Of a stretch of DNA of 64,000 bases, positions 2,604 through 41,885 are shown one piece after another (the stretch's first letter is position 1; every line of letters starts with the position of its first letter). The position numbers and the translations under genes were made by a program. Source of the stretch: Flaccisagitta enflata. Lineage: Eukaryota. The DNA lies in the NCBI GenBank assembly GCA_965153355.1, contig OZ231126.1:17608001-17672000 (forward strand), in the 5' to 3' direction. Under the pieces are notes generated by a model. It did no database searches, was not told the DNA's origin, and saw only the letters and a list, made by a program, of their open reading frames with translations.

Positions 2604-3688
2604 ATTACTTGCCCTCATACAGACCAAAGAGTGCACTCTGCAGGAAAGGCAAAGAATGCTGATGGCAGCAGTGTCAAAGACCGTGAGAGTATGTTGGATA
2701 AACTTTCATGGTATTTTGACAACGATAAGATGGAAGCAGATGAGGATTCAGTTCTCCCTGGAAATTTCCAAATGATGAACAGCTTTTTCCCAACTGATTT
2801 TTAACACCTCAACTTCAAACTTCTGTATCTTTTTTACCATTTGACCGACATAATTCTGCTTGGTGGCAAATGCTTCATTTTTTTAAGCTCTGTAATTCTG
2901 TCATGAATTTTTTTATAATCTACTAATAGATATCTAAGATAAGACATGGAACAGACCTAAAACTTTTTTTTGCGCCGCACTGTAAAACAGACCAAAACCA
3001 GATGTAGATAAGGTGTAAACCAGACGTAAACCAGATGTAAATCAGACGTAAATCAGATGTACAGCAGACATAAACCAGGTACTGTTGAACAAATTGCTCT
3101 TACAGATTTTTCAAACAGGACCTGAATCAGACTAAAACCAGACTTAAACCAGACTTAAACCAGACGTAAACCAGACATAGACCAGACGTAAACCAGACTT
3201 ATGCCAGAATAAGACCAGACCTATTTAGGACTTAAACCAGGTACTGTTGAACAAAGGGGTATTTTGCCTACACCAATACATACATTGTAGCCAAATGAAT
3301 CTTTATTTCACTCAGTTGCTACAAGTTTTACATTTATCTTTGTTACGCTATGTGGACCTCAAGGGTAACAAATTACAGATTTTTTTTGGGTCCAATGTCA
3401 AATGGTGCTTTTATATTTTTCATTGTTCTTTGGGTATCAACTTGATGTATCTACCACCTCATTTACAAAATACAGTGCAATAACAATGTGATGTTAAATA
3501 AATGTAAAATAAAAGGATTAACTCATGTCTAGTCAAACAGTTCTTTGAAAGTCAGAAAATGATCTACCCAATGAGGATTAGTTTCATTAGAAGACTGGGA
3601 GGGGGTGCATGACATGACTGGTAAGGGGTACATGAGGGGTAAATGAAAGATCAGAACCCAGTCTCAATGAAAGGCACATAGCTAAGAG

Positions 3689-3918
3689 CAGGGGCGTAGG
3701 ACAAGGGCATGCCGGGCATGCCATGGCATGCCCTGTTGTCGGGACACTGAAGTTGTCGGGACACCAATTTCTTCAAAAAAAAACAAAAAAAAAGAAAAAA
3801 AAAAGAAGGGAGAAAGAAGGAGGAGTAAGAATAAGAAGGAAAGGAAGAAGAGGAAGAAAAGGAAGAAGGAAAAATTAAAGAAAATGAAAAAAGAAAAAAG
3901 AAAATAAAATGCGGACCA

Positions 3919-4011
<93 letters not shown>

Positions 4012-4609
4012 GACAGACTGGCAGACAAACAGAGGAATTTGAAGTAATAAGTTGAAAGATAAAAATATTTACATAGATTGGAAGTAAAAGGAGAAAGAAA
4101 AAAAAAGGAAAAAAAAGACAGTACAACACAGACACAAAGGTCACAAATTTTATTGAAAAAAATCAAATGGATGCTATGATTGATAAATTTGCTAAAAAAA
4201 CCTTCTTTGTTACAATTTTTTGTTCATGGATGTATAGTTGCACAAGTATGAAATAGTGTTATAGTACTGCCATCATTTTTGTTTTTCTACTCATTGATTT
4301 CCTTCCCCATTTCCAAACCCCTTGATTTTCCCCTCAACTGGGGAGTGGGGGGGGACAACTATATTGTAAGACCAGTAATTCAGAAATTGTCATGAAATTT
4401 TTCATTAAAAAAATTCATGAAGCAACTAAAGTTGCTAATAATGTCTTATCACTAGACAACTCATTAAGCAAGCAAATGTATAACAATAATTACTCTTTTT
4501 ACAGTTTATGACCCTAAAACCACAAGTTAGTTTCTGTTGGGACACTAAATTTGTCGGACACTAATTAGGGGGTGGCATGCCCTAAAAATTCAACTCTCCT
4601 ACGCCCCTG
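3689..4609. mobile_element. hAT-type MITE
   Basis: TIR CAGGGGCGTAGGA / TCCTACGCCCCTG; exact 8-bp TSD GCTAAGAG (3681-3688, 4610-4617); inserted in the 67-bp repeat. Confidence 0.9.
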
Positions 4610-6422
4610 GCTAAGAGAAAGGGGTATATGAGGGGTACATGAGAGATCGAAACCCAGTCTCAATGAAGGGTACATGGAGATAAGAAAGGGGGTACATGAG
4701 GGGTACATGAGAGATCAAACCAAGTCTCATTGTAGGGTACATGGAGAAACAAACCAAGTCTCATTGTAGGGTACATGGAGAAACAATGGGGGTATATGAG
4801 GGGTACATGAGAGATCGAAACCCAGTCTCAATGAAGGGTACATGGAGATAAAAAAGGGGGTACATGAGGGGTACATGAGAGATCGAAACCCAGTCTCATT
4901 GTAGGGTACATGAAAACGCAAAGGGGTTACATGAGGGGTACATGAGAGATCAAATTAGTCTCAATGAATGACATGAGATGGAATAGGAAATGAGGGGTAC
5001 ATGAGATTGAACTCAGTCTCAATGAAGGGTACATAGAGAATGAGGCATGAGGGGTACAGAGAGATCAAAAACCAGTTTGCTGTAGGGTACATGGAGAAAC
5101 AACGGGGGTACATGAGGGGTATATGAAAAATCAAAACCCAGTCTCAATGAAGGATACATGGAGAAAAGGAGGGGGTACATGAGGGGTACATGAGAGATCA
5201 AACCCCAGTCTCAATGAAGGGTACATTGAGAATGGAATAAGGTACAGGAGGGGTACATGAGAGATCAAAACCCAGCTAACTAAGGGCACATGGAGATAAG
5301 AAGGTACATGAGGGGCACAAGAGAGCTCAAAACCCAGTCTCAATGAAGGGCACATGGAGATAAGAAGGGGTACATGAGGTTATGAGAGATTAAACCTAGT
5401 CTCAATGAAGGGCACATAGAGAAGAGAAGGGGGTACATGAGGGGTACATGAGAGATCGAAACCCAGTCTCATTGTAGGGTACAGGAAGAAGCAAAGGGGG
5501 TACATGAGGGGTACATGAGAGATCAAACCCCAATCTCAATGAAGGGTACATGAAGAATGGAATTGGGTACATGAGGGGTACATGAGAGATTGAAACCCAG
5601 TCTCAATGAAGGGTACATAGAGAATGGGGTACATGAGGGGTACATGAGAGCTCAAAACCCAGTCTCAATGAAGGGTACATGGAGATAAGAAAGGGGGTAC
5701 ATGAGGGGTACATGATAGATTAAAACCCAGTCTCAATGAAGGATACATGGAGATAAGGAGGGGGTACATGAGGGGTACATGAGAGATCGAACCCCAGTCT
5801 TAATGAAGGGTACATTGAGAATGGAATAAGGTACATGAGGGGTACATGAGAGATCAAAACCCAGCTTAAATGAAGGGTACATGGAGATAAGAAGGGGGTA
5901 CATGAGGGGTACATGAGAGCTCAAATCCAATTCTCAATGAAGGGTATATGGAGATAAGAAAGGGGGTACATGAGGGGTACATGAGAGATCGGAACCCAGT
6001 CTCATTGTAGGGTACATGGAGATAAAGAGGGGGTACACGAGGGGTACATGAGAGATCAAAACCCAGTGTCAATGAAGGATACATAGAGATAAGGAGGGGG
6101 TACATGAGGGGTACATGAGAGATCCAGCACCAGTCTCAATGAAGGGTACATGGAGAATGGAATGGGGTACATGAGGGGTACATGAGAGATCAAAACCCAG
6201 CCTCAATGAAGGGTACATGGAGATAAGAAGGGGGTACATGAAAGGTTCATGAGAGCTCAAAACCCAGTCTCAATGAAGGGTACATGGAGAAAAGAAAGGG
6301 GGTACATGAGGGGTACATGAGAGATCAAAACCCTGTCTCAATGAAGGGTACATGAAGATAAGAAAGGGGATACATGAGGGGTACATGAGTGATTGAAACC
6401 CAGTCTCAATGAAGGTTACATA

Positions 6423-7417
6423 CACTGCGAACCATAAAAAAGGAAACAGCAGTTCTATAAGCTATTTCTTATGAAAAAAATGACTTTTTGATATTTTCTT
6501 TGTGAGATATGGAAAGAGTGTCATCAAATGAAGACAATGCTACAAATCTCACGAGTTTACATCAATTATTTTAGATTTTATAGTAAAAAGAAGATATGGT
6601 ATCAGAATCTGTTTATGAACTGTGAATTCTTCAAAAGATATGAAAATAGGGACCTTTTATTTTGATTTTTATCCTTTGCAGTACAGGAAATCAATTGATA
6701 TCATAGATCATTTGAAAGATATTCAAAAGAGCTTTCATTTGCCGCCAATCTCACATTTCTAGCTCAATTTGTTTGGACACAGTGAAAAAAAGACTGGAGA
6801 GCATTAATTTTCAAGTTTGAAATGGCGCATAACCAAAATGTACCCATTTAACTTTAAACTAATGCCATTTCCAAACGAGTAAAGCTGGGAGGCTGGGATT
6901 GGTCTAGAATGAAAGATCTTTTAAAGATCTTTCAAATGGTCACTGATTTTGTTTACTTTTTTCAATTCAAACATAGATATTTTAAGAGAGGAAAAAGTTC
7001 CCTCATTTCTAAAATTTCTATGAAGAAAAAATTCTTTCTATTGTCATTCACAAAACGTTTAAATCAAGAGAAAACCTATCAAAATCCATGACATTGAGAA
7101 AGCCCTTGAAAAAATCTGTCATTTGAGCCGTTTCTGGAGTTACTAGCTCAATTTGTTTAGAGATTACAACAGTTTTAGTAAAATTTCTCCTCTATAAACT
7201 ATGAAAGAAAATCTATTGTTTTCCCACTTAGGTTTTGATACATTTGTCTTCATTTTAACATAAGATCCAAACAAATTAATCAAATTTGATGAGACTGGTG
7301 GCAAATTGTTCATTTTTTGAAGCTCTTTGAAATGATCATGAATAACAATTTGATTTGTTGAATTTAAACTATGTAAAATTAGGATGAAAGTTGTTTCTTT
7401 TTTTATGGGTCGCACTG
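6423..7417. mobile_element. Tc1/mariner-type MITE
   Basis: ~28-bp imperfect TIR CACTGCGAACCATAAAAAAGGAAACAGC / GTTGTTTCTTTTTTTATGGGTCGCACTG; TA on both sides; splits the repeat unit at GGTACATA|GAGAAGAG. Confidence 0.85.
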
Positions 7418-8075
7418 TAGAGAAGAGAAGGGGGTAAATGAGGGGTACATGAGAGATCGAAACCCAGTCTCATTGTAGGGTACATGAAGAAGCAAAAGGG
7501 GTACATGAGGGGTACATGAGAGATCAAACCCCAGTCTCAATGATAGGTTTTACAAGTAATTCGAAATGCGCTTGAAATTATTTTCGGAACGAAACGACGG
7601 ATAATTGCGGCTCATTGAGTGCGCGGAAAGGCCCGAAAAATCGATCAAAACTGTAAAATCATCCTAAATAAAATATGCGTCCGGTAGATTTTTTTACGCT
7701 CTTTTCGATGGTGCGCTTTTCAAAACTTTTCGACGTCGGGAAGTATCATTTTTAATTCATTCTTGCTTTCTTTTCCTTCTTACGCCTTCCTGTCAAGTCT
7801 ACCCGTTTTCTTGCACCGCGCTCCGGACGACCCCAAAAGAGAGCTTTTTCAATCACTTTTCAGATTTTTTTTTCTCCTTGACAGAGTTTGTCAGGAAGCG
7901 ATTTTGTAAAACCAAAAGTAACCGGTATTGTGATTTTTTTCATCTCCGTTCTTCAGCCGTGTTTTTTGTTTTCGTTCAACGCAACCAAGTCATTGCTTGC
8001 AATCTAACGAAATTTCCTCGATTGCCAGTTACCAAATATCATTCATGCAGCTTTAAGTCATGGCAGGAAATACGT

Positions 8076-18540: not shown

Positions 18541-19116
18541 TAGCAAGTGCGTACCCATATTACTATTATTAGCTATAGTCGGGGGTCTTAAGGAAATGCC
18601 GTGCAAAAATTTTCAGCAAGCTCTATGAATTTGCATACGGGACTATTTTTTCATGCTGAAGACAGCCAAACCATCCGTTTTTCAAAAAAATTTTCGCACC
18701 CCTTCTAAAAATTGCTTTTTAGGCCATTTTTTTCACTTCAAAACGTCATAACGGGTAAAACGTTCAGGTTGGCTCAACAAAATTTTACATGGTGAAATAT
18801 GTGATATTTCTTTGGTTACATACCAAATTTCAGCTTAATCGGTTGAGTAGAAGCGGCGTTATTGAATTTTAAAGTCTAGGTACCTTTTTTCAAAAAAATG
18901 CCAAAATTTTGAAAAAGGGCTATCCCTAAGCTAAATGGTTCAACTTCATGCCACAAGATTTTGCATGGTCAAATGTATGATGAAAACCGACTTGCATGTC
19001 AAATTCTAACCTCTCAGCCCATATAGAAGCAGAGATATGAATGTTCAAAGTTAAGCATATTTTTTTGAGAAAAAATCAAAAACTACAAAAAAATGATTTT
19101 TTCTCCTCAACGACAA

Positions 19117-20713
19117 CTACGTGAGGTTTGTGCTTGTGGTACAAAGTTTAGGGAAAATCCTTATCTTACCATTGAGAAAATAAGGGCTCAGTTTAAGAAA
19201 GAGATAGATAGCCTTGTAGTGAAGCTATCGGGCAAGTTTAGAATATCGCGGACAGCTTTTAAGAAATGGAAGGGTGCTTTTCTGAGAAATTTTAACAATA
19301 AGCTGATGTCATGTAAGGAGACTACTAGCTATAGACTGCCGGTGCTCACGCGTCGGGAATGTAAGGCGGAACTTTTAAAGTTACAGGATAGTTATGTTAT
19401 CACTGTTGTAGATAAGGCTGCGGGCAATTTTGCTTTTACATGTAAAAAGTTCTATTTTTTGAGATTAGCGGAGGAGTTAGGACTCAATAACGATAACCCT
19501 GGAAATGAGACGTACAGGTTTTCACCGAATTCTGAAGGTGAGATAGTTGGTAGTATTAGGACAGATCTTTTGAGATTCAGGATTGCGCCCGACTCTAAAG
19601 AGGAAAAGTTAGCTCTTTTGTATCAGACTCCGAAGTTTCATAAGAATCCGCCAAAGATGCGATACATAGCTGGTAATGTCAGTACGGTCACATCAAGACT
19701 GGACAGAATTGTGGCTAGTGTCTTGAAAATGTGTAAGGAGCATTTCAGGAATTTGTGTAATAAGAATAAGAAATTTTCAGGTGTAAGATATTATTTTGAT
19801 GTTCAGACTAGCATTGAAGTGAAGGATATGTTTAATTCGGCATATGGATTGGCTGACTCTATTTCGATTAATGATTTTTCAACATTGTACACTCTTTTTG
19901 ATCATGACCATCTCATGACCAATATCAATTGGTTGCTTGCTAAGCTTAGCAAGAACTGTGGTATGGGTTTTTTAAGGATTGGTCATGAGAAATCCTGGTG
20001 GGTTGCTAACAATTCAGAAGGATTAGTGTACTCTGTTGGCGAATTTATTGAAATGGTTGACTACCTAATCCGCAATACCCACATAAAAGCTTTTGGACAT
20101 ATTTTCAGGCAAACTTTGGGGATAATTATGGGAGGTAAGAGTTCAGGCTGGCTTTCAGACTGCTCTCTTATGGTGGACGAGTTTAAATATATTGATAATA
20201 AGATAAAATCAGGACTTAGAGATGAGGCAGAATGTTTAAGATTTTTTAGAAGATATCGCGATGATTGTACTTCTATTAATTTAAGTAACCCAAGAGAATG
20301 ATCAGTCAGATCAGGCAAATGTTTTAGACATGCAGGTAAGAATAGAAGGAGGCAATATCATTACTAAGGTTTTTTGTAAGACAGACATTTTTCCATTCCA
20401 TGTAATATCCCTACCCTTTCTTGAGAGTAATCTAAATTCAAGGATTTGTTATAAAGTTTTTTATGGCCAAATCATAAGATTTCAGAGACTGTGTAATTTT
20501 CAGGAAGATTTTGAGGAACGTGTCAAATTTTTATTGGATACATTAACGGGTAGAGGTTATAAATTTGGGCTACTAAAAAGGGAATTTTGTAAATCTGTAA
20601 ACAAATATATTTCAGAATTTCAGAGATGGGCTATCCCTTTGGATTTTGATAAATGGTTTTTAAACATATCCAGAAATATTCCTTCTTCCATTACTTTTCA
20701 GGTAAGAAACTAG
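19117..20713 (+). pseudogene. PLE reverse transcriptase (truncated, frameshifted)
   Basis: PLE-type motifs GTKFRE, DKAAGNF, TPKFHKNPPKMRYI, DFSTLYT, QTLGIIMGGKSS, RRYRDD, ANVLDMQV and thumb region YGQIIRFQRLC..RGY. Frame shifts near 20287 (DDCTSINLS / TQENDQSDQANVLD), consistent with a short deletion. No GIY-YIG follows the thumb. Confidence 0.9.
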
Positions 20714-21450
20714 GTAAGAAACTAATCTAGCTTGTTAAACACCATTGAGCTTTATCTAGATTATTAATAAGCCAGCTAATTAGTTTGAGATCTAGGCTGT
20801 TTGGTGAGTTTTTGTATTATTCGGTGAAATTTGGGCTTGGTCTATTCATATAGCATGCTCATATTTCATTTATAAGATCATTGGTCTATTCACATAGCTG
20901 TGATCTATATTTGTAAATTTTTGTATGTATTTATGCTTATTGTAATTTGGTGAAATTTGGGCTTGGTCTATTCATATAGCAGGCTCATATTTCATCTATA
21001 TAGATCATTGGTCTATTCACATAGCTGTGATCTTTATTTGTAATTATAATTTGTAAATATGTAAACTATGTAGATTATGTATTCCATGTTTTATCAATCA
21101 AACTATGTTTTTGTGAAAGTTTTTATGAAAATTTATATGTATTCTTTATGAACTACATTTTTCATTTGCATGATTTGTTCAGATTTTCAACTGTTTCATT
21201 TGTTTTTCATTTCATTCCAGGACCTTTGTTTTCAATTTTCATTTTCATTTCAGGACCTCTGTCCTCCCTAATCTAAGACCTCTGTCCATCTGACTCTGTT
21301 TTATTTTGACCACTCCTATTTGACCAGGACTCTTCCTTTTGATCCTCTTCCTCTTCATTCTTCACCTCATTTACTTTCATTTCTACTTCTGATTCTTTTC
21401 TGCCTCTCCACTCTTCCATTTTTGTATTTTTTATGTTTTTAACTTGTATT

Positions 21451-21558
21451 TGTTGTACTTTGGGAAACGGTGATGGGGCCTAAACCGGCCAGGATTAGGG
21501 GTAATAATTTGTTTTACCCTTTTTCCTGCGAGTCCAAAGCCTCGGCTGAGGTACAACA
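21451..21558 (+). ncRNA. Twister ribozyme, type P5 permutation
   Basis: P5 UGUUGUACUUUGG/CUGAGGUACAACA; linker GAAA; P2 CGGU/ACCG; conserved GA (21472-73); T1 UGG pairing with CCA; UAA (21481-83); T2 GC/GC; P3 CAGGA..AGGGGUAA/UUACCCUU..UCCUG; P4 CGAG/CUCG closing loop UCCAAAGC. Confidence 0.85.
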
Positions 21559-22712
21559 TTATTTGTTCTTGTTTTTTGGTTTTTATTGTCTTTCTTTTCC
21601 TCATTGCCTACATTGACACAGTTATAAATGAAGAGGAAGGAGAAGAAGAAGAAGAAGAAGAGGAAGAAGAAGAAGAAGAAAAAGAAAAAGAAGAAGAAGA
21701 AGAAGAAGAAGAAGAAGAAGAAGAAGAAGAAGAAGAATTTTTTTCCAAATTAGGTTGCTTGCTTTCACCCTCGGACACCTAGCTGGTAACACCCAGCTAT
21801 TAGTTTTTCCACAAACTTTGGTTTGAAATATAAAGACAATCACTCACGTTTACTGGAAATCAATCAAAGTTCATGGACAAATCAAAAAACTTTTTATAAG
21901 CTTTTCAGTCAAGAAATCCGCATGTGATTTTCTGTCCTTTTATGGATTTGGTAGGCATTTGAAGTTAGTAAGGTTTTTTTGGCAATTTTGCAGTAATTTG
22001 CATGGGGAGTGTTTTGATCTCATTCGATTTTGTCTAAAGCATAAATAAAAGCGTAAGACTTTTTCAAGCTCTACCTGGTGAAAAAATCCGCGTGTGGCTA
22101 AATATTTCTATTTAGATGTGACAGTTGTTTGCTTTTGAGACAATATCAATTGGACAGGTGTTAAAGGAGCAACATGGGGACAGGTAAAGTAAGACCCCAC
22201 TAAAAGTATTTCAAATTCATCCATACTGTTCCAAAAAATGCAAAATTTTGAAAAGGGCCATGCCTAGGCCAGACGATTTGGCCGATTGCCACAAAATTTG
22301 ACATGGTGATAAGCATTATCAAAACAGAGTTATAAATTTTCAAAGAATCACCATTACTTTTGGAAAAAAAAAAACAACAAAAATAGAAAAAATACCATTA
22401 CTTCTGAAACATAGTGGCCTCGGAGATGAAATTTAAGATGATGAATTGCGTGATATTCATGACTCTACATGCCAATTTTTAGCTATCTAGCTCACACTGA
22501 GGTTTTAAATGACCATTTTTTAGCCTAAAGACCCAGTTTTAGTTCATCCACTGGTCCTTAATTGGGGATTTTCCTCTGACTAGATCTAATCTATCGCTAA
22601 CCAAAGAAAATTTGATGATTGGAGATCTAGTAAGGCTGATATGAAGCCTAATAGAGCAAAAATTTTGTCTGGAAGGCCTGATTTTGGACTGTGTAGACTG
22701 ATTCAAGGTGTA

Positions 22713-26076: not shown

Positions 26077-27468
26077 TTTACACTGATGAAGAGACAGCGA
26101 GTTATGGAACTCTTAAGCAGAATGGATTGCCGTTGCAACGAGTGCAACGAGTTTGACGAGAAGACGCAGAATAAAGTCAAGCCCATTTTCGAGAATGGAA
26201 CGTATTGGCTACATCCAGAGAATATCCTCCTTACGGCACTGGCAGATTCAAGACAAGAGATAAGGTCACAAGCAGTTGAGCAAATTCTGAGGATAAGGCA
26301 TGACGAGCGTACAAAAAAGCTGGCAGAAGAAGAGCAGCTGAGGTTGAAGAAAGAAAAAAATGCACATTCAAAAGACAGAGTTTTCATAAAGCCAGCGCCA
26401 AATTATGGTGCAAACGATTATATCAAATTCAAAGGAGAATCAGAGAACATTTTGATTTATGAACCACCATTTAAGTCGAAGACAGAAGATCAATTAAGAG
26501 AATTCATTGGCGAGAAGTGACATTTGGACATCAGCAGCAATTCGGTCACAACAGAACGAATAATCCGCAACATGTCAAGTGTTGCAGCCACAACAACGTC
26601 GGCGGAAAGACGAGATGGACTAATTTGAGTGATTCATCTGGAACGCGAAAAATCGGCATCCAACTAAAGGCTTCTTTTGTATTTGTTTTGTAATGTTTTG
26701 GAGTTTGTATTTGAATTCCTGCGATTCCTGTTATAATGAAAGCTAATATTCCAATAGATGCGTGTCTAAGATGAAAGCTTTCCTATTAATCGTAAACATG
26801 CAACTCTATAAGGGGCTTTGTCTGTCTGTCACGCTTGAGTCAAAAACGGGCATTTATATAAGTATGTGAGGGGGGTTGAGGGGTGGGGCTTTGGTTAGTC
26901 TGGGGGTTGGATGCCCCTGCCCTACCATCTGCAACAATATTGTAACACCACATCACTTGTTCTTTAAAGAATGTCAACTTTGGAAGACTGTCGCTCCAAA
27001 ACGAATCAACTTAGGCTCGTTTAAAGAACTTTGTCTGCTCCTTAAAATGAGCCCAAGTTGAGGTCAGTAGCTCAATTCATTTAGAAGATGCAGGTCTACA
27101 AAGAGAGGGGTAAATGCATCTTTTTTCTCAAACGAAGCATCAACTTTGGAAGACTCTCTCTCCTAAATAGACTGAGCTACAGACTTCGACTTAGGCTCAT
27201 TTTAAAGAGCTTTGTCTGCTCTTTAAAATGAGCCCAAGATGAGGTCAGTAGCTCAATTTGTTTGGGAGCTATGAGCTTTTAAAGCAACCACTTGAAATAG
27301 GAATCATTAGAGAATGCACCATCTTTCAAATTAGGGGGGGGTGGTGGGTATGAGCAAAGTTTAACCAATCACCTTCAGATTTGGGAATACTCATCTACGA
27401 TAGAAATGGTCTTATTTTCTCCGCGGGCGTCATGAGGTTTGAAAATGGCACCACTTTAAGCCACCCAC
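25095..27468 (+). mobile_element. DNA transposon with ~510-bp TIRs, inserted in a HINE
   Basis: CAGTGGGTGGCTTAAAGTGGTG... mirrored by ...CACCACTTTAAGCCACCCAC (terminal bases lost); arms ~25095-25606 and ~26976-27468. Confidence 0.85.
26086..26667 (+). pseudogene. C-terminal transposase remnant (hAT-superfamily-like)
   Basis: YWLHPENILLTALAD..IR..AV..IL.IR, RVFIKP..NY.A.DY, EPP, then past a TGA: SNSVTTERIIR...RRDGLI*. By recall this resembles a widespread invertebrate hAT-like transposase C-terminus (HPENxL ... QxVERxVK ... RDGxIR). Confidence 0.65.
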
Positions 27469-27653
27469 CTTTGTCAGTCCGTGGGTCCATCCATCCGTTG
27501 GTCCGTTGGTCCGTCGGTCCATCCGTCACACTTTACTTTTTTTGGGTTTTTGCGGTTTTTGGCTTCACTGCTCCTGCCCAAATGATCTGGTGACCTCAAT
27601 TACAGCCCCTGCCCACCTGCACGCGACTGGGGTAGCCGTGTATCCGGCCTTGT
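27469..27653 (-). mobile_element. HINE family A copy (split; remainder at ~25068-25094)
   Basis: GGGGTAGCCGTGTATCCGGCCTTGTT end, GTCC microsatellite; the hairpin end TAGTTGCGTGCTACGCGACTCTA lies left of the nested transposon. Confidence 0.8.
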
Positions 27654-29888
27654 TCTGGAGGGTTTTAGACTATGAGAGCTTATATATCGGCCTTAGTGTG
27701 AGCTAGATAGCTAGAAATTGGCATGTAGAGTTGTAAATATCACACAATTCATCATGTTAAATTTCATCTCCATGGCTACTATGGTTCAAAAGTAATGGTA
27801 CTTTTTCTATTTTTTTTTTTTTTCCAAAAGTAATGGTAAATCTTTAAAAATTCATAACTCTGTTTTAATAAGGGTTTGATAGCTCAGATTTGACATGGAA
27901 TTAGGTATTAATAATGCTTATCACCATGTCAAATTTTGTGGCAATCGGCCAAATTGTTTGGCCTAGGCATAGCCCTTTTCAAAATTTTGCATTTTTTGGA
28001 ACAGTGGGTACCTAGACTTTAAATGACAATATCTCCGCTTCTATTTGAGTTTTTAGACTCAACTCAAAAAATATCATATTATTCATCATGTAAAATTTCA
28101 GGTCAGTGGCATTTGTCGTTGAGGAGAAAAAATCATTTTTTTGTAATTTGTAGTTTTTTTCTCAAAAAAATATTATTAACTTTGAACATTCATATCTCCG
28201 CTTCTATATGGGCTGAGAGGCTAAGATTTGACATGCAAGTCGGTTTTTATCATACATTTGGCCATGCAAAATCTTGTGGCATGAAGTTAAACCATTTAGC
28301 TTAGGGATAGCCCTTTTCAAAATTTTGGCATTTTTTTGAAAAAAGGTACCTAGACTTTAAAATTGAATAACGCCGCTTCTACTCAACTGCTTAAGCTGAA
28401 ATTTGGTATGTTAACCAAAAAAATATCACATATTTCACCATGTAAAATTTTGTTGAGCCAACCTGAACGGTTTACCCGTTATGATGTTTTGAAATAAAAA
28501 AATGGCCTAAAAAGCAATTTTTAGAAGGGGTGCTAAAAATTTTTTGAAAAACGGATGGTTTGGCTGTCTTCAGCATGAAAAAATAGTCCCATATGCAAAT
28601 TTCTAGAGCTTGCTGAATATTTTTGCACGCCATCCTTGATTTTGGCGCTAAGATCCCCGACTACTAGGGACAGATACAGGCTCAGAGGATGGCGTGTGAG
28701 AGAAAGGAAATGTTGGCCATCTTGATTCATAATCATTAGTGCAATGACTAATGAGTGGAGACGGGGGAGGGGGGGGAGGGTTTGGTAAGAAGGTAGGGAG
28801 GATCACAACTGTTAAAAAGAGACAGAGGGGAGGGAAAGGGAGGATGGTGAGGGATGAGGGAGGGTGTAAACAGCGGATAGAACTCTCACCCTCACTTTAC
28901 TGGCACAAATAACAGAAAAACGCGTATGGTTTTAATTCAATGTGTTTAATGATGCGTGAATGGATGATAAAGCATGCAAACTGTGGGCCACCGGAGAATT
29001 TGCCGGGGATGATATGATAGAAATATCCTAAAAGGATAAATAAATCTGGAGGAAGATAAACAGAAAGGAAGGCATGATAGATGTAGTGAAAACACTCGGG
29101 AAAACCCGGTGGGATCCACACAACTTTTGGCATCAAAGATTTGATGATGAGCGCAAAATTTCAACGGACTGTGTTATGAGGCACGTGCACGCGAGCGCGT
29201 AGTTAAATTGGTTCCTCGGTTCGTCGGTCCAATGACAGGGTTTCCCCTTTACTAGCATGCTAGCATGCTTTTCTCCTCTTGTTGATCTATTGTTGAAACA
29301 TTGAACAACTGTTTTTTGACAAAATTGGACATAATGGTTCCTTCTGCCGATAATTATCAAAGCAAACCATGAACATACATCAATGTTCTCCATTCATTCA
29401 TTTATTCATTTGTATATTCGTTCAGTCATTCACTCATTCTTTCTATCATTCGTCCATTCATTCATTAGCTAACTAATCCAATTCTTTCTAGCCATTCCGC
29501 CAGTAGCACTTTCTGCCTTGTTTCTGTGGTAAATGAAGAGATCCGAGAAAAAAATGAAATATGAGCGAATTCATATTTTCATTTGCTCCAGTAATAATTC
29601 GTACGTAGAATCATTAAAAATCATTTTAAAAATAAAATCTAATCTCACTGGGATAAAATCGAACTTCGGAAAGAGGCAGTTTGATGGTTGGAGTTTGTGA
29701 GATGGCTCTCATCAAAGTCAGTATTCAAATGCTTGTCATCGTTAAATCATCAGCGACAGGATGCAGGGTATACGATGCGCTGGTTTGTTTTGAGATCAGG
29801 GTGCAAGCAGATAAAGCATTTCTTGATGATGATGATTTTGATGACGATGCCGATGCCGATGTCGATGACTATGATTATTTTGTTTACG

Positions 29889-29919
<31 letters not shown>

Positions 29920-29930
29920 TGTCGTTGTCG

Positions 29931-30071
<141 letters not shown>

Positions 30072-30108
30072 TTGTTGTTGCTTTTGCAGTCACACTTTTC
30101 CACTTTAC

Positions 30109-30273
30109 CTCGTAGTTTCTGTTGAGGCGCAGGCGAGAGCGAATCCTTCCTTTGCCTTTTGTTTCTTTTCTTTTTTCTTGTTTTTAAAGGTGAAAAATCC
30201 CGAGAGGCCGCTGGAGGCTCTCGCTGTCAAATCCGAGAGGGACAAAGCACGACTGCTTTTGTTGATGGAGACC
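30109..30273 (-). CDS. Host gene exon B
   Basis: Acceptor tgtccag|G, donor AG|gtaaag, phase 2-2, 165 nt, RSPINKSSRALSLSDL...ASTETT. Confidence 0.8.
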
Positions 30274-30437
30274 TGGACATTGAGAAAGAAAGAAAGAAGT
30301 GCCCAAATTCAAACTGTTACTGTAAGGACTAATATTTCTGAATGAAATATTGAACGCAAGAAAAGACTATACATGAAGAAACGGATGAACGAATCGACTA
30401 ATGAATAATCATATTTTGATAGATTCGACTTTTGTTT

Positions 30438-30635
30438 TTTTAGTCGTGTGATACGCGACACTGCACCCTGCTTTGTCGGTCCATCCTTCCGTACGTCGGT
30501 CCGTCCATCCGTCACATTCTACTTTTTTGCGGTCTTTGGCTTCACTACTCCTGCCAAAATGATGAAGTGACCTCAAATACGGCCCCTGCCATGCCCACCC
30601 GCACGCGACTGGGGTAGCCGTGTATTCGGCCTTGT
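30438..30635 (-). mobile_element. HINE family A copy
   Basis: TTTTAGTCGTGTGATACGCGAC hairpin, GTCC microsatellite, GGGGTAGCCGTGTATTCGGCCTTGT end. Confidence 0.75.
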
Positions 30636-32722
30636 GGCCGAGGATTGATCGTGATCGAAAACATGATGGAACAATATTATCCTTTTGAAAAATACAGCGA
30701 CATCTTAAAAATTAACACCAACATTGGAAGAGTGCCGCTCCCAAACTAAAGCTACAATTACCAGATTGATTCTTCTTTTTAGACGACGCTATAACTATAA
30801 TCAGAGTTATAAGAACTGGATTGCAGTTTTGATTAAATCAACGTCATTAATTCATACTTTTCTTAACTGTTTCTCTACATTACTCAAATTGCTCTTCCCT
30901 ATGGCTGGCAACAAATCCTACAACATTTGAGCCTCTTCAGTGAACAGATTTTAAACAGCTTACTCATGTATCTCACTTTCTCTCTGAGGTCTTGTTTTTT
31001 CCTCTTTCTCCCGGGGTCTTCGGGCGTGTTTTTTCCCTTATTTTCTCGATCTGGAGCTAAAATTCATCCATCATTTTGAAGGCTTCAGGGACTATTTTTT
31101 TTCCAAAAATCATTCACCCAACCAAACTTTTGGAGGGTTCCTTGTTTTGTTTTTAAAAAGAGGGTAAGAACCTAAGTACTGTAGTTCTAGGCCTAGGCAC
31201 CGGTAAACTGTTGAGTCCTAGGCATAATGATAATGAAAAAAACAAAAACAATGAGCTTTTTGTTTTATTCTTGTTTTTTTCTCTTTAACTCATCAACGTA
31301 GACTTTCTCGATGTAGCTTGTTGCACATCTTGGCTGATATCTACAGTCCTATCGGTAAATCAATTTTTTTCTAACATTCTTTCCCTTACATTCCAACCTC
31401 TCATTATCCGATCCACCACATACAAATTATCGACCTGTAGGTGTACCTCCTCCGACCCAGCACCCATTCGATTCCAACCTCGAAAAGACTTGAGGATAAA
31501 ATAATTTCTCAAATGAGAACCAGCTGTATTCAAAGCCTTACATAAGCGACTGGAAGGAGAGAGAGTCGGTATACCTAGAAATCTGCTTCAGCAATTAATG
31601 AAATTCGATCATTCTTGAATTGAACTCTCTACTTCTTCCTTGTATTTTTTTTCCCATGATCATCTTTCGCCAAACGTCTTTTCTTGATCTTGGTCGGAGC
31701 AAGGCCAGATACATGGTTCTAGATGTTCTCGGCGTGAAATGAAACTAAATCAGGATCAACGATTCGTTTTGTGAGTTTGTAGCGATCAATCCTCACAACC
31801 TCCCATCAATCATAGTAGAGCACCGCTATAGCGCACTCGCTAATAAGGCATACCTGCCTACAAGGCATAGAACTTACCGTCCCTTGAGATATTTCATAAT
31901 TATTTCTATATTGGCAATAAGGCTGCTTCACTTTGAAGCATAATTGGAGCCCAACTGAATGTGGTTTAGCCATGAGCACGCTTTTATGCATGAAATCATT
32001 AGATGTCATTGGTCAAAGGGTAACCACCACGGTCGATTTGTGTATTAACGACTAAGGATCCCTCAACCAAATCTGATGGCAAGCTCTAGAGACGAAGGGA
32101 CTTAAAGAAAGAATGGAATTTAAGGGGAAAACCGAAAGAATTCTGTGGGCCTCGAAATCGAGTTTGAATTTAGGAGATTTAGTTGAACAAACAAAAACAA
32201 GAAAAAAATCGATTTTGGCTGAAAAAAAGTTTTCAGACTAAATCGCCGATTTAAACTTAAAGCTCAGCAAAACTGTTTAATTTTTGAATCCTATTCTTTA
32301 ATTCGATAACATACCTAAGAGCGCCAACTTCTTGTTTACTATTTTCAAAACCTTAAGATTTCCATATTTGATTATCACTCTATAATTTATTCTATGATTA
32401 TTTTTGCTGCTACGTGTATACGGTAAGCTGTGGTAATCGAGCCATAATTTGCATATTGCCATCATGTGAAACCATCGGCATCAATGGAATGACAGCTTCT
32501 TATTTAGACAAAAGAGATGATATACCGCAGTATGGCATTGTCCAAGCTGTGTTCCATAAGAGTAAAGTGTGGGGATTCATTTCCGTGCCAGAAACTGCGC
32601 GCAAGTGGTGAACAAGACGCCATAGTTTCCCGTTCATGTTTTTTCATTGTATTGGGCCAATTTTATTCCAAAAAGGTTTTCCATCTGGCTTGGTTCTAAA
32701 GTTCAAACGCCTTCCGGATTAC

Positions 32723-33382
<660 letters not shown>

Positions 33383-33488
33383 CTGTGAGAATCGTGTGTG
33401 TTTGTTGTTTGGTATGCATGTGGACGAGAGATAGGAAATTGAAATGGAAAGAGAAAAAGAGAGAAAGATGAATGATATTGGATAAAAA

Positions 33489-33670
33489 AAACAAGGCTGG
33501 ATACACGGCTACCCAAGTCACGTGCTGATGGGCAGGGGCAGTGGTAAATGCATTTGAGCAGGAGCAGTGATGCAATGATCAGCCGTAAATGTAAAGGGCG
33601 ACGGACCGACGGACAGACTGACGGAAAAAGCGGACTAGCGAAGTGTAGAGTCGCGTTGTACGCGACTATT
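33489..33670 (+). mobile_element. HINE family A copy
   Basis: AACAAGGCTGGATACACGGCTACCC start, (GGAC)n, GTAGAGTCGCGTTGTACGCGACTA hairpin end. Confidence 0.8.
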
Positions 33671-35294
33671 TAACGTTCTAAAGAGGCCTGTAAACAATCA
33701 ATTACTTCATTAAAGATCAATCACATTTTTTTTACTTTCATATATGATTGATACCAAACATGAGTCCGGCTTCTTAATGATCTAAGTCTCAAATTATCCT
33801 TGAGATTGTAAATAATGGTAGTATTTGTTTTTTTGTCATGAGCCGACGTTGTTTTGAAAGGGAGAAAATAAATGGCTTATTGAATATTTTTATAGAGAGA
33901 GAGAGAGAGACAGAGACAGACAGAGAGAGACAAACAGACAGACCCGCAGCTATCAGAAACGTTCCTATTTTTTCTGTGATCAACGCCTTAAGAAAATCGA
34001 CCAAATCAAAAGGTGTAAAATTTGCTGCGTCCATCAACAACTAAAGAGTCTGCAGTAAAGACTAAATGCAATAAAATGAAAGCAAAACTTGGACGAGAAA
34101 GGAGACTTGTGTCCAAAGCATGAAAAATAATGAAAGGAAAACACCACTACAATCGAAAAAAATAAACAAGGCTTCCAAAGGCAAATAAGTGCGACCGAAA
34201 GAAATTTAAGATTTTTGAACCTTAATGACCGACACCAGACCAGAAGCGACATTCCCAATGCTAGCATAAGCTGACCTAGAGGCATCAACTGTTCTATTCT
34301 ATTCTAAATAGGCAGGTAGGACGGATAGATGGACAGATTTACAAAGAGATGCAAAATGGCGGAAAGAAATAAACCGACAGATAGGCAGGCAGACAGAGAC
34401 AGACCGGTAGAAAGAGTGATAGCCGTATAGACTCTATAGACGCAAGGAGAAACCGAGAGAAAAAGTGACGCGGGGTCACAATATCGTTGTGGACGGGTGG
34501 GCAGGGGCATCCAACCCTCAGCATCACCCCCCCCCCTACATCCCTCCCATACACAAACCTATCCAAAAAGAATCTAAATCGTTTGTTTTTCCATTTTTTA
34601 TCGCAATCATCATGCACCAATGGACCAACGGACCAACGGACAAAGTCACTTATAGAGTTACGTGTCCGCAACAAAGAAGAGAGAAAAAGAGAGAAAAAGA
34701 GAGAAAAAAAGCAGAGAAAAGCGAAACCTTCAGAATAAGGAAAACAAAAAAAAAGAGATTAAAAAGTCAAAACTCTCGGACCAAAACAGATGCTCGAATC
34801 TGTGGATAATGACGCTCGGTTTTGAAGAGAAGCATCTTTTGAAAAGGGTGAGCGGCCTAGCGGTGGTTTATAGCAGCGGGGAGTGCTATGAATTTAAAGT
34901 GAAAATCAAGGGAGAGAGAAGCAGAGAGAGAAAGGGCACTGAGTGGGTGTTTCTATCGTCATATAGCGTGTCCGATGGGAAGCATTTTAGTAAACAAGAG
35001 TGCATGCGATGGTTAAAATAATACATATCCTCGGTGAGTCCATCTGTCTGTCGCCTCCTTTCACAGTTATGTGATTATGAGTCGATAAATAACTGGAGAG
35101 ATCTGCAACTTTGTAGTTTGTAAATACGTTTCAGAGTAACTATAAAAGTGTCCTGTTGTCGGTCCGTCGATCCGTCAGTTCGTTCTTCCGATTGTCAAAG
35201 GCAAAGCGTCGACAGTTATGCGTAAAGCGAAGCGCGGCTAGCTTTCACAAAGTTGTTTTTTTTTTTTTTTGAGTCGTCCAAAACATTCATGTCT

Positions 35295-37645
35295 CTCAAC
35301 GCACAGACCACCAAATCCCACCTGATGAAATAAGCCCCTGCGACACTGTCCGCTCTCCAGAAAGCCTACACAGACCACCAAATCCCACCCTGATGGAGGA
35401 AGCAAGCCCCTAACATTGCCTCCCTACTCAAGCCACCTACACAGACCACCAAATCCCACCCTGATGAAATAAGCCCCTAACGAGCTTACTTTATCCGCTC
35501 AAGCCACCTCACATGAACCACCAATCCCACCTGATGAAATAAGCCCCTAATGACACTTTGTCCCGCTCAGCCACCTACAGACACCGTCCCACCTGATGGA
35601 AATAGCCCCTAAGGACACTTTGCTCCCTCCAAACACCTACACAGACCACCCAAATCCCCTGATGAAGCCAAGCTTTGCGGCACTTTATCCTCAAGCCACC
35701 CACACAGACCACCAAATCCCCACCTGATGGCAAATCAGCCCCTAACGACTCTTTATCACGCTCAAACCACCTACACAGAACTCTAAAAATCCCACCCTGA
35801 TGAAATAAGCCCCTAACGACACTTTATCCCGCTCAAGCCACCTACACAGACCACCAAATCCCACCCTGATGGGAAATAAGCCCCTAACGACACTTTATCC
35901 CGCTCAAGCCACCTACACAGACCACCAAATCACACCCTGATAGGAAATAAGCCCCTAACGACACTTTATCACTCTAAAGCCCACCCCACAGAGATGCACT
36001 GAAATCCCACCCCGATGAAGCCAGCCTAACGACACTTTATCGCTCATTACCCACACAGACCACCGTCCACCCGATGGGAACTAAGCCCCTAACGACACTT
36101 TATCCAATCAGCCACACCCACACAGACCACCGTCCCACCCCGATGTAAAATAAGCCCCTAACGACACTTTATCTCGCTCAAGCCACCTACACAGACCACC
36201 AAATCCCACCCAGATGGGAAACAAGCCCCTAACGACACTTTATCGCTCAGCCCTCCCTACCTGAACCACCGTCCCACAGCTGGGAAATAAGCCCTGTGGC
36301 TTGCTTTAATAAAACAAACCTTCGCACAGACCACCAAATCACCCACGATGAAATAAGCCCCTAACGTGACACTTTATCCGCTCAAACTGCTGAACCACCG
36401 TCACGATGAAATGACCCCTAACGACACTTTATCCCGCTCAAGCCACTGCTGAACCACAAAATCCCCACCTGATGAAATAAGCCCTAACGACTTCTTTATC
36501 CATCAAGCCACCACGCACAGACCACCAAATCCCACCCTTGGGAAATAAGCCCCTAACGACACTTTATCGCTCCAAGCCACCGCACAGACCACAATCCCAC
36601 CTGATGGGAAATAAGCTAACGACATAATCGCTCCCAAAGCCCCACCACCCACAGACCACCCAAATCCCACACGATGAAATGGCTAACGACACTGTCCCGC
36701 TCAAGCCACCACGACCACAAATCACCCAGATGGGAAATAAGCTGCGGCACGCTGTCCCACGCTCCGTACCCACACAGACCACCGTCCCACCCAGATAGAA
36801 ATAAGCCCCTAACGCTGCTGTCCCGCTCCAAACCACACAGACCACCAAATCACCGATGGGAAATAATAACCTAACCCACTTTATCCCGCTCAAGCCACCC
36901 ACAGACCACCAAATCCCACCCTGATGGGAAATAAGCCCCTAACTACACACATCCCGCTCAAGCCACCCACAGACCACCAAATCCCACCCTGAAGAAATGG
37001 CCTAACCACACTTTATCCTCAAAAGCCACCCACACAGACCACCGTCCCACCTGAGAAATAAGCCCCTAACATTGCTATCCCGACTCAGCTACCCACACAC
37101 AGACCACAGAAATCCCACCATGAGAAATAAGCCCCTAACGACACTTTATCGCTCAAGCCCTGCCAGACCTGGGATCCCTGCATGAAATAAGCTGCGACAC
37201 TTTATCGCTCTCAAGCCACCTACACAGACCTGGAAATCACCTGATGGAAAAATAAGCCCCCTAAACACTTTATCCGCTCAAGCCACCACAGGCCTAATCC
37301 CACCCTGATGAAACCATCCCCTATGACACTATCCGCTCAGCCGCACGAACCACGTCCACCCTGATGGGAAATAAGCCCCTAACAAACACTTTATCCGCTC
37401 AGCCACCGCCTGAACCACCAGAATTCCTGATGGAAAAAAGCCCTAAAAGCACTTTGTCCGCTCAAGCCGCACATTTTAATGAACACCAATCCCCACCTGA
37501 TGAGAGTGCGCCCCCTAACGACACTTTATCCGCTCAAGCCACCCTTTGAGCCACAAATCCCACCCTGATGGAAAATAAACCCTACGCCTTTATCACTCAA
37601 GCCACCACATTTAGACAACGTCACTGATGGGAAACAAGCCCCCTA
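35295..37645 (+). repeat. ~65-70-bp satellite array abutting an assembly gap
   Basis: Unit CACAGACCACCAAATCCCACCCTGATGGGAAATAAGCCCCTAACGACACTTTATCCCGCTCAAGCCACCTA; many scattered indels. Confidence 0.9.
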
Positions 37646-37665
37646 TTTGACAAGCCAATACATGC

Positions 37666-37698
37666 NNNNNNNNNNNNNNNNNNNNNNNNNNNNNNNNN
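37666..37698. other. Assembly gap (33 N)
   Basis: Run of N. Confidence 1.
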
Positions 37699-37699
37699 G

Positions 37700-37706
37700 G
37701 GGAGGG

Positions 37707-37778
<72 letters not shown>

Positions 37779-38866
37779 AGGAGAAAGAGGCGCGAAATTT
37801 GCTGCCCGCCCGACAAACTAAATGATTCTTTTGAAGTCACTTATTTGCTAACTCCCATTTCCCCCTCTTTTGTTTCCTCCTTCCACCCCTTCAATCTTAA
37901 GACTCCTGTCGGGGCAGCAGACAAATCAACAACACAATCAACCGGAAACACATCCACTGCAACTTCAAAGCCAATCAAATTCTCGGGCGATTCTAGAAGA
38001 ACGTCTAACGCAGAGGAAGCAGCTTCCGAACAAAGGTAAAACTAGCCAGATTTGACCATCTGACCATCATTACCGAGCAATTTAGTGGAAGTTGGAAGTT
38101 CGCTTTTTTAGGCCACTAGTGGTCGTTCCATGACATTTTCCGCGCCATGAGAGGAGTGACCGAGCGGATGTAATGCATAACTAATCGCTGTTGAACTTGG
38201 GTTAGCAGGGCTTATCCCCATAAGCCGTTTAAACATATCCTGATATTTGACCGAGTCGAATTCGAAGAACTACCGATATGATGACAGACTCAAATAGATA
38301 AAGTGATTCGAAATGAACAGAAGGGATAGTGTGAAAGGTCATGTCATTCGCTAGTTCCATCAGTAAATGATTTGTTTTTAATTGAAGTCGTAGAATCTTT
38401 TGCAAATTCCACATAAAGAAACAGTGAAGATTTTCCCGTATTCTTGGAATGAGTATACAACATAAAGAGGTGCAAAAGAATTATACTGCCTTATGTAAAT
38501 TAAGTCTTTGCATGACAACCTGGTGGTGGTGTTCGAAATAAAAATGGCTTACAGCGGGACAGCGATTCAACAATCGCTATGTCGTGTCATTCCAATGCCC
38601 GTCGATCTGGCCAAGCGGCCTTCGGTACTTTTTTAGCTCAATAGTTTTTTGGCATTACAACTGCCATCGCTCAATGACCAGAGTAGCTTCTGTGTTACCA
38701 CCCTGCCAACCCGTTCGCGATCCTAGGCCTTGACTAGTTTCTATCAACTGAATTAAAATACAGTAGCATAAGCGTCAAATTACTCAAACATTCTACGTTG
38801 CCCCTATATGATAAGTTAGTGTATCTTTGGATGTGCTGCCCTTAAACCGAATATTAAAAGAAAACG
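37700..38866 (+). repeat. Inverted duplicate of 12643-13394 plus 16161-~16613
   Basis: Near-identical reverse complement (compare ORFs 13095-13280 and 38229-38414, or 16229-16414 and 37870-38055). Confidence 0.95.
37902..38035 (+). CDS. Host gene exon D (copy 2, inverted duplicate)
   Basis: Reverse complement of 16249-16382 with the same splice sites. Confidence 0.75.
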
Positions 38867-38916
38867 TCCTTAAGACATTCATTTGCCATTTTCTGAATGT
38901 TTTCTCCCCTTTTCAG

Positions 38917-39886
38917 CCCCTCCTTCTGCGTCTTCTTCTTCCTTCTCATCGGCTGATTATCGTCACCGACGTCGCGTCCCGACAACTCGACGGGTTGCCT
39001 TCAGCGCGTCGGCATTAGACTTGACTCACGTCGGGGTCAAAACTGGGGATTCCTCTCAACATCAACAAGATCAAATACAGCAAAGACAGCGACAGCAGCC
39101 TCGTAGCAGCAGCAGCAGCGGCGGCGGAAGCAGCGCGTGTCGACCGATCGACGTTATCAATCTTGACAACGGATTCCAAACTCATTACGCGTCTTTCGTC
39201 GATTTGTCCAAAAACAACGTCGTTTTTGTCAGTGGCGGCCAAAGAGGTGGTGGTAGTAGCGGTGATAATGGTAGCAGCTACAGTGTAGCCAGAAAATCAC
39301 GATCAGCGGATTCGAGGCCAAAATCCGAATTCCTAGAATCAGTTTCGAATCGATTCAATTTTGATTTCGCTTCGTCGACGCAGCCTTCCGTTTCTTCATG
39401 CGCCTCTAAAGTACCGCTGTCGCCAGCGACACCGGCGTCTCCCGCTTCTGCCTCATCGGTACAATCAGCAACGTTACCCTCGACTAGCGTCACCTCGTGC
39501 TCCACCGTCGCACTTACGGCCGCATCCTACCGCCTCGTCACTGCCGCGGCGCCAACTTCCAAGTGCTTCACTTCCGTTTTTCTTCCAGCGTCTTCATCGT
39601 CTTCCGCCATCGCGCCATCAACTGTGACGTGGACTACTCAAACGCCATCTGTCAGCGTCAGAGAAAACGCCACTCAACCTATTTCCCTTCCTCTGCCGCA
39701 TCCTGCTCCGCCTCCTCCTCATCGGCCTCCTCCCGGCTGTCGACAGGATAGAAGAGCTTCTCTCGGACCGATTGAACACTTCGGACCAGGACCCAAGGCA
39801 CAAGGGGGGTTGCCTGTCATTAAAAGCTTTTCGGTGTGGAACTTGTCTTCTGATGGAGCGGAAAACTCTTATCAAAATTTGAACAG
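38917..39886 (+). CDS. Host gene exon E (S/T/P-rich)
   Basis: Acceptor ttttcag|CC, donor AG|gtttga, phase 1-2, 970 nt, within ORF 38883-39902. Confidence 0.85.
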
Positions 39887-40195
39887 GTTTGAATTTCCAT
39901 GATGATTGCTTCCAATGAATGAATTTTCGGAAACAAGAGGGTTTACTTCCTCTGCATTATCTATTCTTTCATTCACTTAAATTCATTCATTCATTCATTC
40001 ATTCATTCATTCACTCATTCGATCATTTATTCATTCTTTCATTCATTCACTCATTTATTCAAACCTTCCATTCATTTTTTCATCCATTCATTCACTCGTT
40101 CTTTCATTGACCCATTGACTGCATTTCATTCGTTTGCTATAAGAATTATGTAAAGATTTGAGTTAAAAGTTATTTACTCTCTCTCTCTCCATCAG

Positions 40196-40336
40196 ACTGC
40201 AGTCCAAGTCCAGCTTTGGGTCCCAATTTCGATTAGATCGAAATTCGTTCTCTCCAAACGGAACTTTGCCCGATTGGAAGACGAGTGGCAAAATGGGCGC
40301 AAACCAGAGTCAACTTCCCAGTGGATCCGCGCAAGG
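40196..40336 (+). CDS. Host gene exon F (contains in-frame MGANQS)
   Basis: Acceptor ccatcag|A, donor GG|gtgagt, phase 2-2, 141 nt, RLQSKSSFGSQF...KMGANQSQLPSGSAQ. Confidence 0.8.
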
Positions 40337-40554
40337 GTGAGTGTGAAGTGATTAAGTTGCGTTGGCATGAGTGAAAGATGTGGTTTTGTCCTGCCTCAGC
40401 CCTCAATTCATATGAAACATTGTTTTCCATTACGATTAGATTACGATTTGAAATGTCCAGAATCTTATGTCCTCCATTTCTTTTATTGCCAATCATCTGT
40501 CGGCACTGTGTCAAGACTGACCGACAACTCTTTATTTCCTCTACCGCATATCAG

Positions 40555-41107
40555 CACGTATCAGCAGAGGTGTCACAGTCGGCGAAACGGTGATTCGAAT
40601 CCTTCAGCTCGATACTCCTATCACGAGGACATCGATCGGCGCGTCAACGTTGGCGTCGATGGCGCTTCCGGCGTCGGGATAACCGGAAATGGCGGCGTAA
40701 ACGGCGTCGCTCCCAATCCGAACGCCGCCGCTTCGGCGAGATACGCATCTTGTCCTGGTCTGGCTGCCGGCGCGGTGCAGATTGCGGGCGATTCGACGAC
40801 GTCGACAACTCCCAACGGCGGAGGAGGTGGAAACGGAAGTGGAGGCGGAGGAGGAGGATCAAGAAGTCGTTCCTACCAACCCCCTGCTCCTCCTCCTCCT
40901 CCGACCCGTGGGTCCTCGGCGGGATCTTCCTCCATCTCCTCCAGTGGCATGTCGACGTCGTCTTCCAGTCACGCCAGCGTCTCTTTGCATCTCATCGCTT
41001 CCAGTCAAGACTTGAGGCGCATCTCGGAAGCGCCCGCGGAAGAGGAAAGAGCCGCCACGCAGCAGATGATGGCGGAAAGTGGCAGCGGAGGATTTCAGAT
41101 GAGACAG
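40555..41107 (+). CDS. Host gene exon G (G/S/P-rich)
   Basis: Acceptor atatcag|C, donor CAG|gtttaa, phase 2-0, 553 nt, within ORF 40367-41113. Confidence 0.85.

Positions 41108-41458: not shown

Positions 41459-41566
<108 letters not shown>

Positions 41567-41796: not shown

Positions 41797-41885
<89 letters not shown>

Follow-up and report, generated by a model that had tools for sequence, protein, structure and literature searches.

How does a twister ribozyme work, if it works at all, when its P1 hairpin has been reduced to four bases? The question is raised by positions 21451-21558 (+) of the window, the whole 64-kb stretch of DNA analysed here, where a twister-like motif follows the coding part of a Penelope-like element. 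An earlier note had seen only GGCC joining the pseudoknot strand T1 to the UAA cleavage site. It proposed that this self-complementary word could let two copies share a P1 by strand swapping, which would make cleavage depend on a tandem arrangement.

We compared the stretch with the Rfam Twister-P5 consensus line, as printed by cmscan for a bacterial Twister-P5 example scoring 41.7 bits. This line runs in the order P2 strand, GAGgG, P1 hairpin, UAA, P2 strand, GC, a short joiner, P4 and the L4 sequence GUCcCAAGCC. Its P1 hairpin has a 4-nt loop on a stem of 8 bp (6 bp in the bacterial example). With P1 excepted, 21451-21558 (+) fits the type-P5 consensus base for base, in the following layout.

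21451-21463 (+): 5′ strand of P5, with 8 Watson-Crick pairs (21451-58) and 5 more that include wobbles; its partner is 21546-58
21464-21467 (+): P5-P2 junction GAAA, which is GUAAA in published twisters (Liu et al.)
21468-21471 (+): 3′ strand of P2, CGGU, complementary to 21484-87
21472-21476 (+): 3′ strand of L1, a conserved G-A (21472-73) and then the T1 strand UGG (21474-76)
21477-21480 (+): GGCC connector in the P1 position, read from the letters and compatible with 19 of 19 other copies
21481-21483 (+): UAA, with cleavage predicted between U21481 and A21482 from the consensus position
21484-21489 (+): 5′ strand of P2, ACCG (21484-87), and GC (21488-89), a conserved part of pseudoknot T2
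21492-21526 (+): optional P3 hairpin of 35 nt, with 11 pairs and a 9-nt loop
21529-32 / 21541-44 (+): P4, 4 pairs, which closes L4
21532-41 (+): L4, GUCCAAAGCC, with 9 of 10 letters as in the Rfam L4 consensus
21546-21558 (+): 3′ strand of P5, pairing with 21451-63; the core 21451-58 / 21551-58 can be extended to 13 bp

Every pair of this layout was verified individually. Only two conserved consensus letters depart, with U in place of G in the L1 strand and A in place of C in L4, and both are partners of a single T1 pair (C-G to A-U), so the change is two-sided. The layout agrees with the published twister table (Liu et al., PMC8501958) and with the structure described in the consulted part of the review PMC5408937, which counts four pairs in P2 and three in T1 and assigns a GC to T2. 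P2 here has 4 bp (CGGU 21468-71 with ACCG 21484-87) and flanks L1, and an N-A cleavage step followed by an A lies within L1 (UAA, 21481-83). Pseudoknot T1 pairs UGG 21474-76 with CCA 21534-36 (GGG/CCC in the consensus), and T2 pairs G21488 and C21489 with G21539 and C21540. The P1 helix of twisters, phylogenetically conserved and of at least 2 pairs, is replaced by GGCC only. The earlier note's identification of the surroundings as a twister is thereby upheld.

Rfam returned no match at the gathering threshold anywhere in the 64-kb window, and thus no twister or hammerhead. Weak matches numbered 12 in 21000-22000 and 10 in 21440-21570 (131 nt, E ≤ 10), none of them a ribozyme, and the twister models RF02684, RF03160 and RF02681 gave no match at gathering or at E ≤ 10. 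This miss is understandable, because aligning this form obliges a model to drop eight pairs and accommodate an insert of 35 nt; Rfam twister models miss forms with a collapsed P1. The absence of a match would also be expected if the likeness to a twister had arisen by chance inside an ordinary repeat, and a core-only descriptor, written without P5 and P3, does hit 3% of shuffled windows (1 site in the 64-kb window, 6 in 200 Markov-shuffled windows). P5 and P3, however, lie exactly where the consensus permits them, conservation among copies reaches its maximum on the motif, and the changes seen there are compensatory or preserve pairs. We consider a chance likeness very improbable. The stretch 21451-21558 itself folds with z = -3.9, and 0 of 200 shuffles were equally stable.

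The motif lies in the 3′ part of a mobile element, the features of which are as follows.

19111-20713 (+): RT part of the ORF of a 5′-truncated Naiad-type Penelope-like element, located by tblastn, with one frameshift near 20289
20714-21447 (+): 3′ UTR upstream of the ribozyme, with high k-mer depth, including a tandem duplication
20809-20916 / 20937-21043 (+): tandem duplication, a blastn self-match of 92.7% over 109 nt
21559-21629 (+): variable 3′ tail; contigs stop at 21627 and peptide identity falls to 43%
21630-21737 (no strand assigned): purine-rich (GAA)n microsatellite flank, read from the letters

The ORF covers residues ~438-970 of full-length relatives of ~975 aa (tblastn) and lacks the N-terminal half. 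Three relatives carry a GIY-YIG domain at the N terminus (residues ~20-203), and RVT_1 is detectable in one relative, where it is C-terminal. The family consensus contains CDC (the CxC linker) and the window ORF contains VVDKAAG, an instance of the DKA motif that Craig et al. 2021 (PMC8557442) describe as diagnostic of Naiads. Going by these clade features, found across the relatives and the window ORF, we assign the predicted protein to a Naiad-type Penelope-like element. At its 5′ end the element is truncated, and the sequence upstream of about 19116 is another repeat. The repeat family at this truncation point (18901-19116) recurs at 28113-28328 (-), 27802-27989 (-) and 22241-22331, with identities between copies of up to 93.5%. 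Elsewhere in the window, 37666-37698 consists of 33 N, probably an assembly gap.

The 3′ end of the element falls near 21627-29, against the (GAA)n tract, and this places the ribozyme ~70 nt from the end. It is here that canonical Penelope-like elements have their hammerheads. The (GAA)n flank also fits the microsatellite bias reported for Naiads, which insert into such tracts (PMC8557442). Within the 3′ UTR, the duplicated module of ~108 nt forms a stable hairpin in each copy (z = -4.7), and part of it is conserved in a metagenome locus (L001, 2562-2624). Depth over 20885-21019 in the DNA run is 27,044-46,489, as high as that of the ribozyme, and an Rfam search with the module gave no match.

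A collapsed P1 in one copy could be a local deletion, and the other copies bear on this. They were read through spurious small peptides that had been called as genes on both strands in public assemblies, 19 in all (6 in plus frames and 13 in minus frames). Two proteins longer than 1,100 aa, which align with the query only in part (P0069 and P0071), were left aside, changes in P0070 past its frameshift were disregarded, and lower-scoring wrong-frame alignments gave way to the anchored comparison. In nucleotide terms, silent changes are invisible to such a reading, and the copies may not be independent of each other. The peptide MGPKPA stands in 6 of 6 plus-frame peptides and GRFRPHH in 12 of 13 minus-frame peptides; the thirteenth has the same letters read in a third frame. 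Because these words are kept, an insertion at P1, in the interval between T1 and UAA, is absent from every copy. An ordinary longer P1 in other copies, which the earlier note had named as an observation that would count against its proposal, did not appear, and the 4-nt spacing holds in all 19. The collapsed P1 is thus, as read from these peptides, a trait of the family and not the deletion of a single copy.

The ribozyme is also the most conserved part of the copies. Peptide identity to the window inside 21449-21559 is 94% (579 of 613 residues), and it is 56% (77/137) in the 30 nt upstream and 43% (36/84) in the 30 nt downstream, a drop exaggerated by the ungapped comparison and by indels in the flanks. 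These counts cover 17 of the 19 peptides, P0066 and P0070 being excluded for frameshifts. Changes could be deduced at five stem positions, and pairing is kept at all five. They are 21468 C>U in P0063 (P2), 21529 C>U in P0061 (P4), 21546 C>U and 21462 G>A (both in the P5 extension), and the P3 pair 21498/21520, which is G-U in the window and P0057, A-U in 16 copies and G-C in P0063. All the remaining changes fall outside the stems: in the P3 loop, in an internal loop, at the P5-P2 junction and immediately beyond P5. L1, T1, T2, L4 and the connector are untouched by any of the deduced changes. At the junction, A21465 is U in 6 other copies, giving GUAA(A) as in published twisters; at this position the window copy may be in the minority.

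Public sequencing runs were compared with the window as well. In a DNA run of the same organism, k-mer depth peaks over the ribozyme, with summed contig depths of 42,515 over 21470-21514 and 46,381 over 21515-21559, and 1,255-7,533 over 20300-20884. Among 12 of the 13 indel entries listed for matching contigs, none falls between 21431 and 21556, and among 42 of the 152 substitution entries, 21498 G>A is the only one inside the ribozyme. In three runs the contigs begin to match the window at 21447/8 and cease at 21627. Upstream of 21447/21448 they carry at least two different sequences. This divergence makes 21448-21627 a ribozyme module common to subfamilies with different 3′ UTRs, or to non-autonomous elements. 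Taking letters, layout and copies together, we regard 21451-21558 as a true type-P5 (circularly permuted) twister ribozyme that is common to the family, an identification made at the level of sequence.

The loss of P1 and the change in T1 might have disabled catalysis, with the fold kept for another task at the 3′ end, for example recognition by the RT, or the copies might simply be young. A contig from an RNA library crosses the predicted cleavage site unbroken, the Rfam models fail, and the high identity of the copies could reflect recent amplification. The contig, from a metatranscriptome, weighs little on cleavage, as contigs cannot show ends. A poly(A) RNA run contributed 4 poor reads from ~6% of the run, without a pile-up of ends, too few for a cleavage readout. 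Against a non-cleaving RNA, the catalytic and pseudoknot positions are all kept while the flanks diverge, stem changes preserve pairing and the T1 change is compensated. We therefore hold the loss of cleavage to be unlikely.

The connector itself agrees with what the earlier note had described. Positions 21472-21489 read GAUGGGGCCUAAACCGGC, with GGCC alone at 21477-80 between T1 (UGG) and UAA, and the word is self-complementary. The same is true of 16 of the 256 tetramers, and the palindromy of GGCC is no more than chance. Most simply, the connector is the two core-nearest base pairs of P1 with nothing remaining between them, and in that case palindromy needs no further cause, since joining the two strands of such a 2-bp remnant always yields a palindrome. 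Under the codon constraint of the peptides, all 19 copies must have G21477 and C21480. G21478 is certain in 12 copies and C21479 in 7, most of the others allowing either C or U at 21479. The four unchanged bases are not evidence of special constraint, because variable sites are so few.

We favour the reading that the element carries a natural closed-loop "mini-twister" whose P1 has shrunk to GGCC and which cleaves in cis without a partner, and we put its probability at roughly one half. With the P1 hairpin reduced to a four-base connector, the role of GGCC would be confined to linking, as a short loop, the T1 strand with the cleavage-site U. Folding would proceed through P5, P2, P3 and P4 and the pseudoknots T1 and T2, and the RNA, acting as a monomer, would cleave in cis between U21481 and A21482. 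In the life cycle of the element it would replace the hammerhead of other Penelope-like elements, trimming long or tandem transcripts.

Published work on P1 bears on such a monomer. According to the consulted part of the review PMC5408937, P1 is dispensable, and twisters lacking it cleave off a single nucleoside at almost the wild-type rate; the earlier note's statement that P1-less twisters can stay active is borne out there. Natural T-variants with a degenerate P1 are reported to show activity in vitro as well as in cells (Liu et al. 2021, PMC8501958), although the same paper, as far as consulted, terms cleavage without P1 'inefficient'. De la Pena (PMC7761336) describes truncated but competent twisters in RTE elements. 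Geometrically, a four-base connector across the end of the T1 helix would resemble a tetraloop. A 4-nt tether might on the other hand strain the site, whereas the engineered mini-twister has a free 5′ nucleoside.

Should the tether be unable to support the active site, a monomer would be inactive or slow, and two copies could swap strands so that GGCC/GGCC forms a shared P1 of 4 bp. Cleavage would then be restricted to tandem or concentrated transcripts. The word is self-complementary and compatible with all 19 copies seen. Penelope-like hammerheads with a very short palindromic stem III loop act as dimers, as the earlier note had stated and as is reported in the consulted part of PMC6765202, and the same oddity sits here beside the cleavage site in the same class of element. 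The 'inefficient' cleavage without P1 (PMC8501958) would also suit a dimer. Against a dimer, P1 is reported to be dispensable (PMC5408937), and a palindrome would arise from any stem that collapses and is found in 1 of 16 tetramers. A nested energy model does allow a swapped homodimer, at about -8 kcal/mol for the ensemble and a rough Kd of ~2 uM. Its lowest-energy form pairs UGGG with CCUA across strands and leaves G21478 unpaired, which buries T1 and the scissile U-A and contains no shared GGCC/GGCC P1. The 64-kb window holds no second twister copy and no tandem pLTRs; the element is 5′-truncated and an upstream pLTR lies outside the view. The connector is invariant among the copies, and conservation of its palindromy offers no informative variation. 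These observations neither support nor refute the dimer idea, and nothing positive for dimer activation emerged; we consider it unlikely.

The same letters allow an intramolecular arrangement. GGCC 21477-80 could pair with GGCC 21487-90 in a hairpin over UAAACC, competing with P2 and T2, and the ribozyme would be held off until this brake is opened, for instance by co-transcriptional timing, a protein or the RT. The pseudoknot-free minimum free energy structure uses exactly this hairpin, at -45.0 kcal/mol against -37.3 for the nested twister fold, a gain of 7.7 kcal/mol. Pseudoknot and tertiary energies are unscored in these values. These two are the only GGCC words in 21000-22000. The match may nevertheless be a coincidence, since P2 and T2 already dictate the letters of the second GGCC, and there is no variation between the two words from which covariation could be drawn. 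We give such a brake little credence, and keep the closed-loop monomer as the preferred reading.

Similar twisters were sought in other collections. A pattern built from the flanks in the window, with a P1 of 0-30 nt, found 5 viral stretches and at least 120 in prokaryote genomes; we reject them as chance matches, because none of the 125 examined had a twister L4 in context. A second window-derived pattern and a search for relatives of the element protein each gave 0 matches in viral contigs. There, a generic twister pattern found 116 stretches, and none of the 20 scored with Rfam reached the twister threshold. Among 47 protein-guided JGI metagenome loci, only L001-L005 are close relatives of the element, and the 3′ sequence present in them contains no twister; their contigs may end too early. 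Three distant loci resembling Penelope-like elements, L031 (-) at ~1634, L037 (-) at ~3097 and L039 (-) at ~2287, share a stretch with the word UCCCAAGC. Two of them have a UAA-N4-GC word upstream, and the stretch lies on the strand opposite the RT match. As a twister it was rejected, having failed a fuller twister descriptor.

The context in the element may be a more important result than the collapse of P1. Naiads rank with the most abundant Penelope-like elements of invertebrates (PMC8557442), and their reported lack of hammerheads had raised the question of whether they depend on self-cleavage at all. That a conserved twister stands at the corresponding 3′ place in a Naiad lineage suggests that the need for a ribozyme persists and is met by a different class. 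Our literature search found no paper linking twisters with Naiads, and no such case in the titles and opening abstract lines of papers on twister ribozymes and Penelope-like elements, a point on which the supplements of Craig et al. and Liu et al. may bear. In that search this is also the first natural closed-loop counterpart of the engineered mini-twister that we found. Dimer gating, if true, would confine cleavage to the meeting of two copies, in tandem pLTRs or multimeric transcripts, and would release unit-length RNA that is afterwards, as a monomer, safe from being cut again. Penelope-like elements would in that event have evolved dimer-gated ribozymes twice, in hammerheads with a palindromic stub as stem III and in a Naiad twister with GGCC as P1, which we think doubtful.

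How the motif stands to known ribozymes can be set out class by class. Its parts follow the order of the type-P5 twister of Rfam (RF02684), with the ends in P5, and the conserved letters agree. It differs in that P1 is GGCC only, a 35-nt P3 is inserted and one T1 pair is A-U, and the model does not detect it. With the engineered mini-twister (Kosutic et al. 2015, as cited in PMC5408937), it shares the lack of a P1 helix and an otherwise intact fold; that construct is reported to cleave at almost the wild-type rate. The engineered construct has an open form in which one free nucleoside precedes the cut on its 5′ side, whereas the Naiad twister is permuted and closed by a 4-nt tether.

The T-variant twisters of Perere-3, an RTE element of Schistosoma mansoni (PMC8501958), are likewise natural, reside in retrotransposons and have a degenerate or missing P1, and they are reported to be active and used in transcript processing. 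They are type P1 and lie at the 5′ end of LINE-like non-LTR elements, and the 5′ strand of their P1 comes from the target-site duplication. The Naiad twister, in contrast, is type P5, lies near the 3′ end of a Penelope-like element and has a fixed connector.

The minimal hammerheads of Penelope-like elements (Lunse et al., as cited in PMC6765202) have the same class of host and a short palindromic closure beside the cleavage site. A very short closure of this kind, a trait of dimer ribozymes, is present here as GGCC, and it is also expected from a collapsed stem. Hammerheads belong to another ribozyme class and need stem III, whereas the P1 of twisters is reported to be dispensable.

The window element and its relatives share with the Naiad clade (Craig et al. 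2021, PMC8557442) an N-terminal GIY-YIG domain and a C-terminal RT (both seen in the relatives) and the motifs CxC and DKA, and resemble it further in a high copy number and in a flanking microsatellite. Every other endonuclease-bearing clade is described there as carrying a hammerhead, and Naiads as lacking canonical ones; the main text, taken apart from its supplements, does not mention a twister. Unlike the Naiads so described, the element in the window bears a putative ribozyme near its 3′ end, and that ribozyme is a twister.
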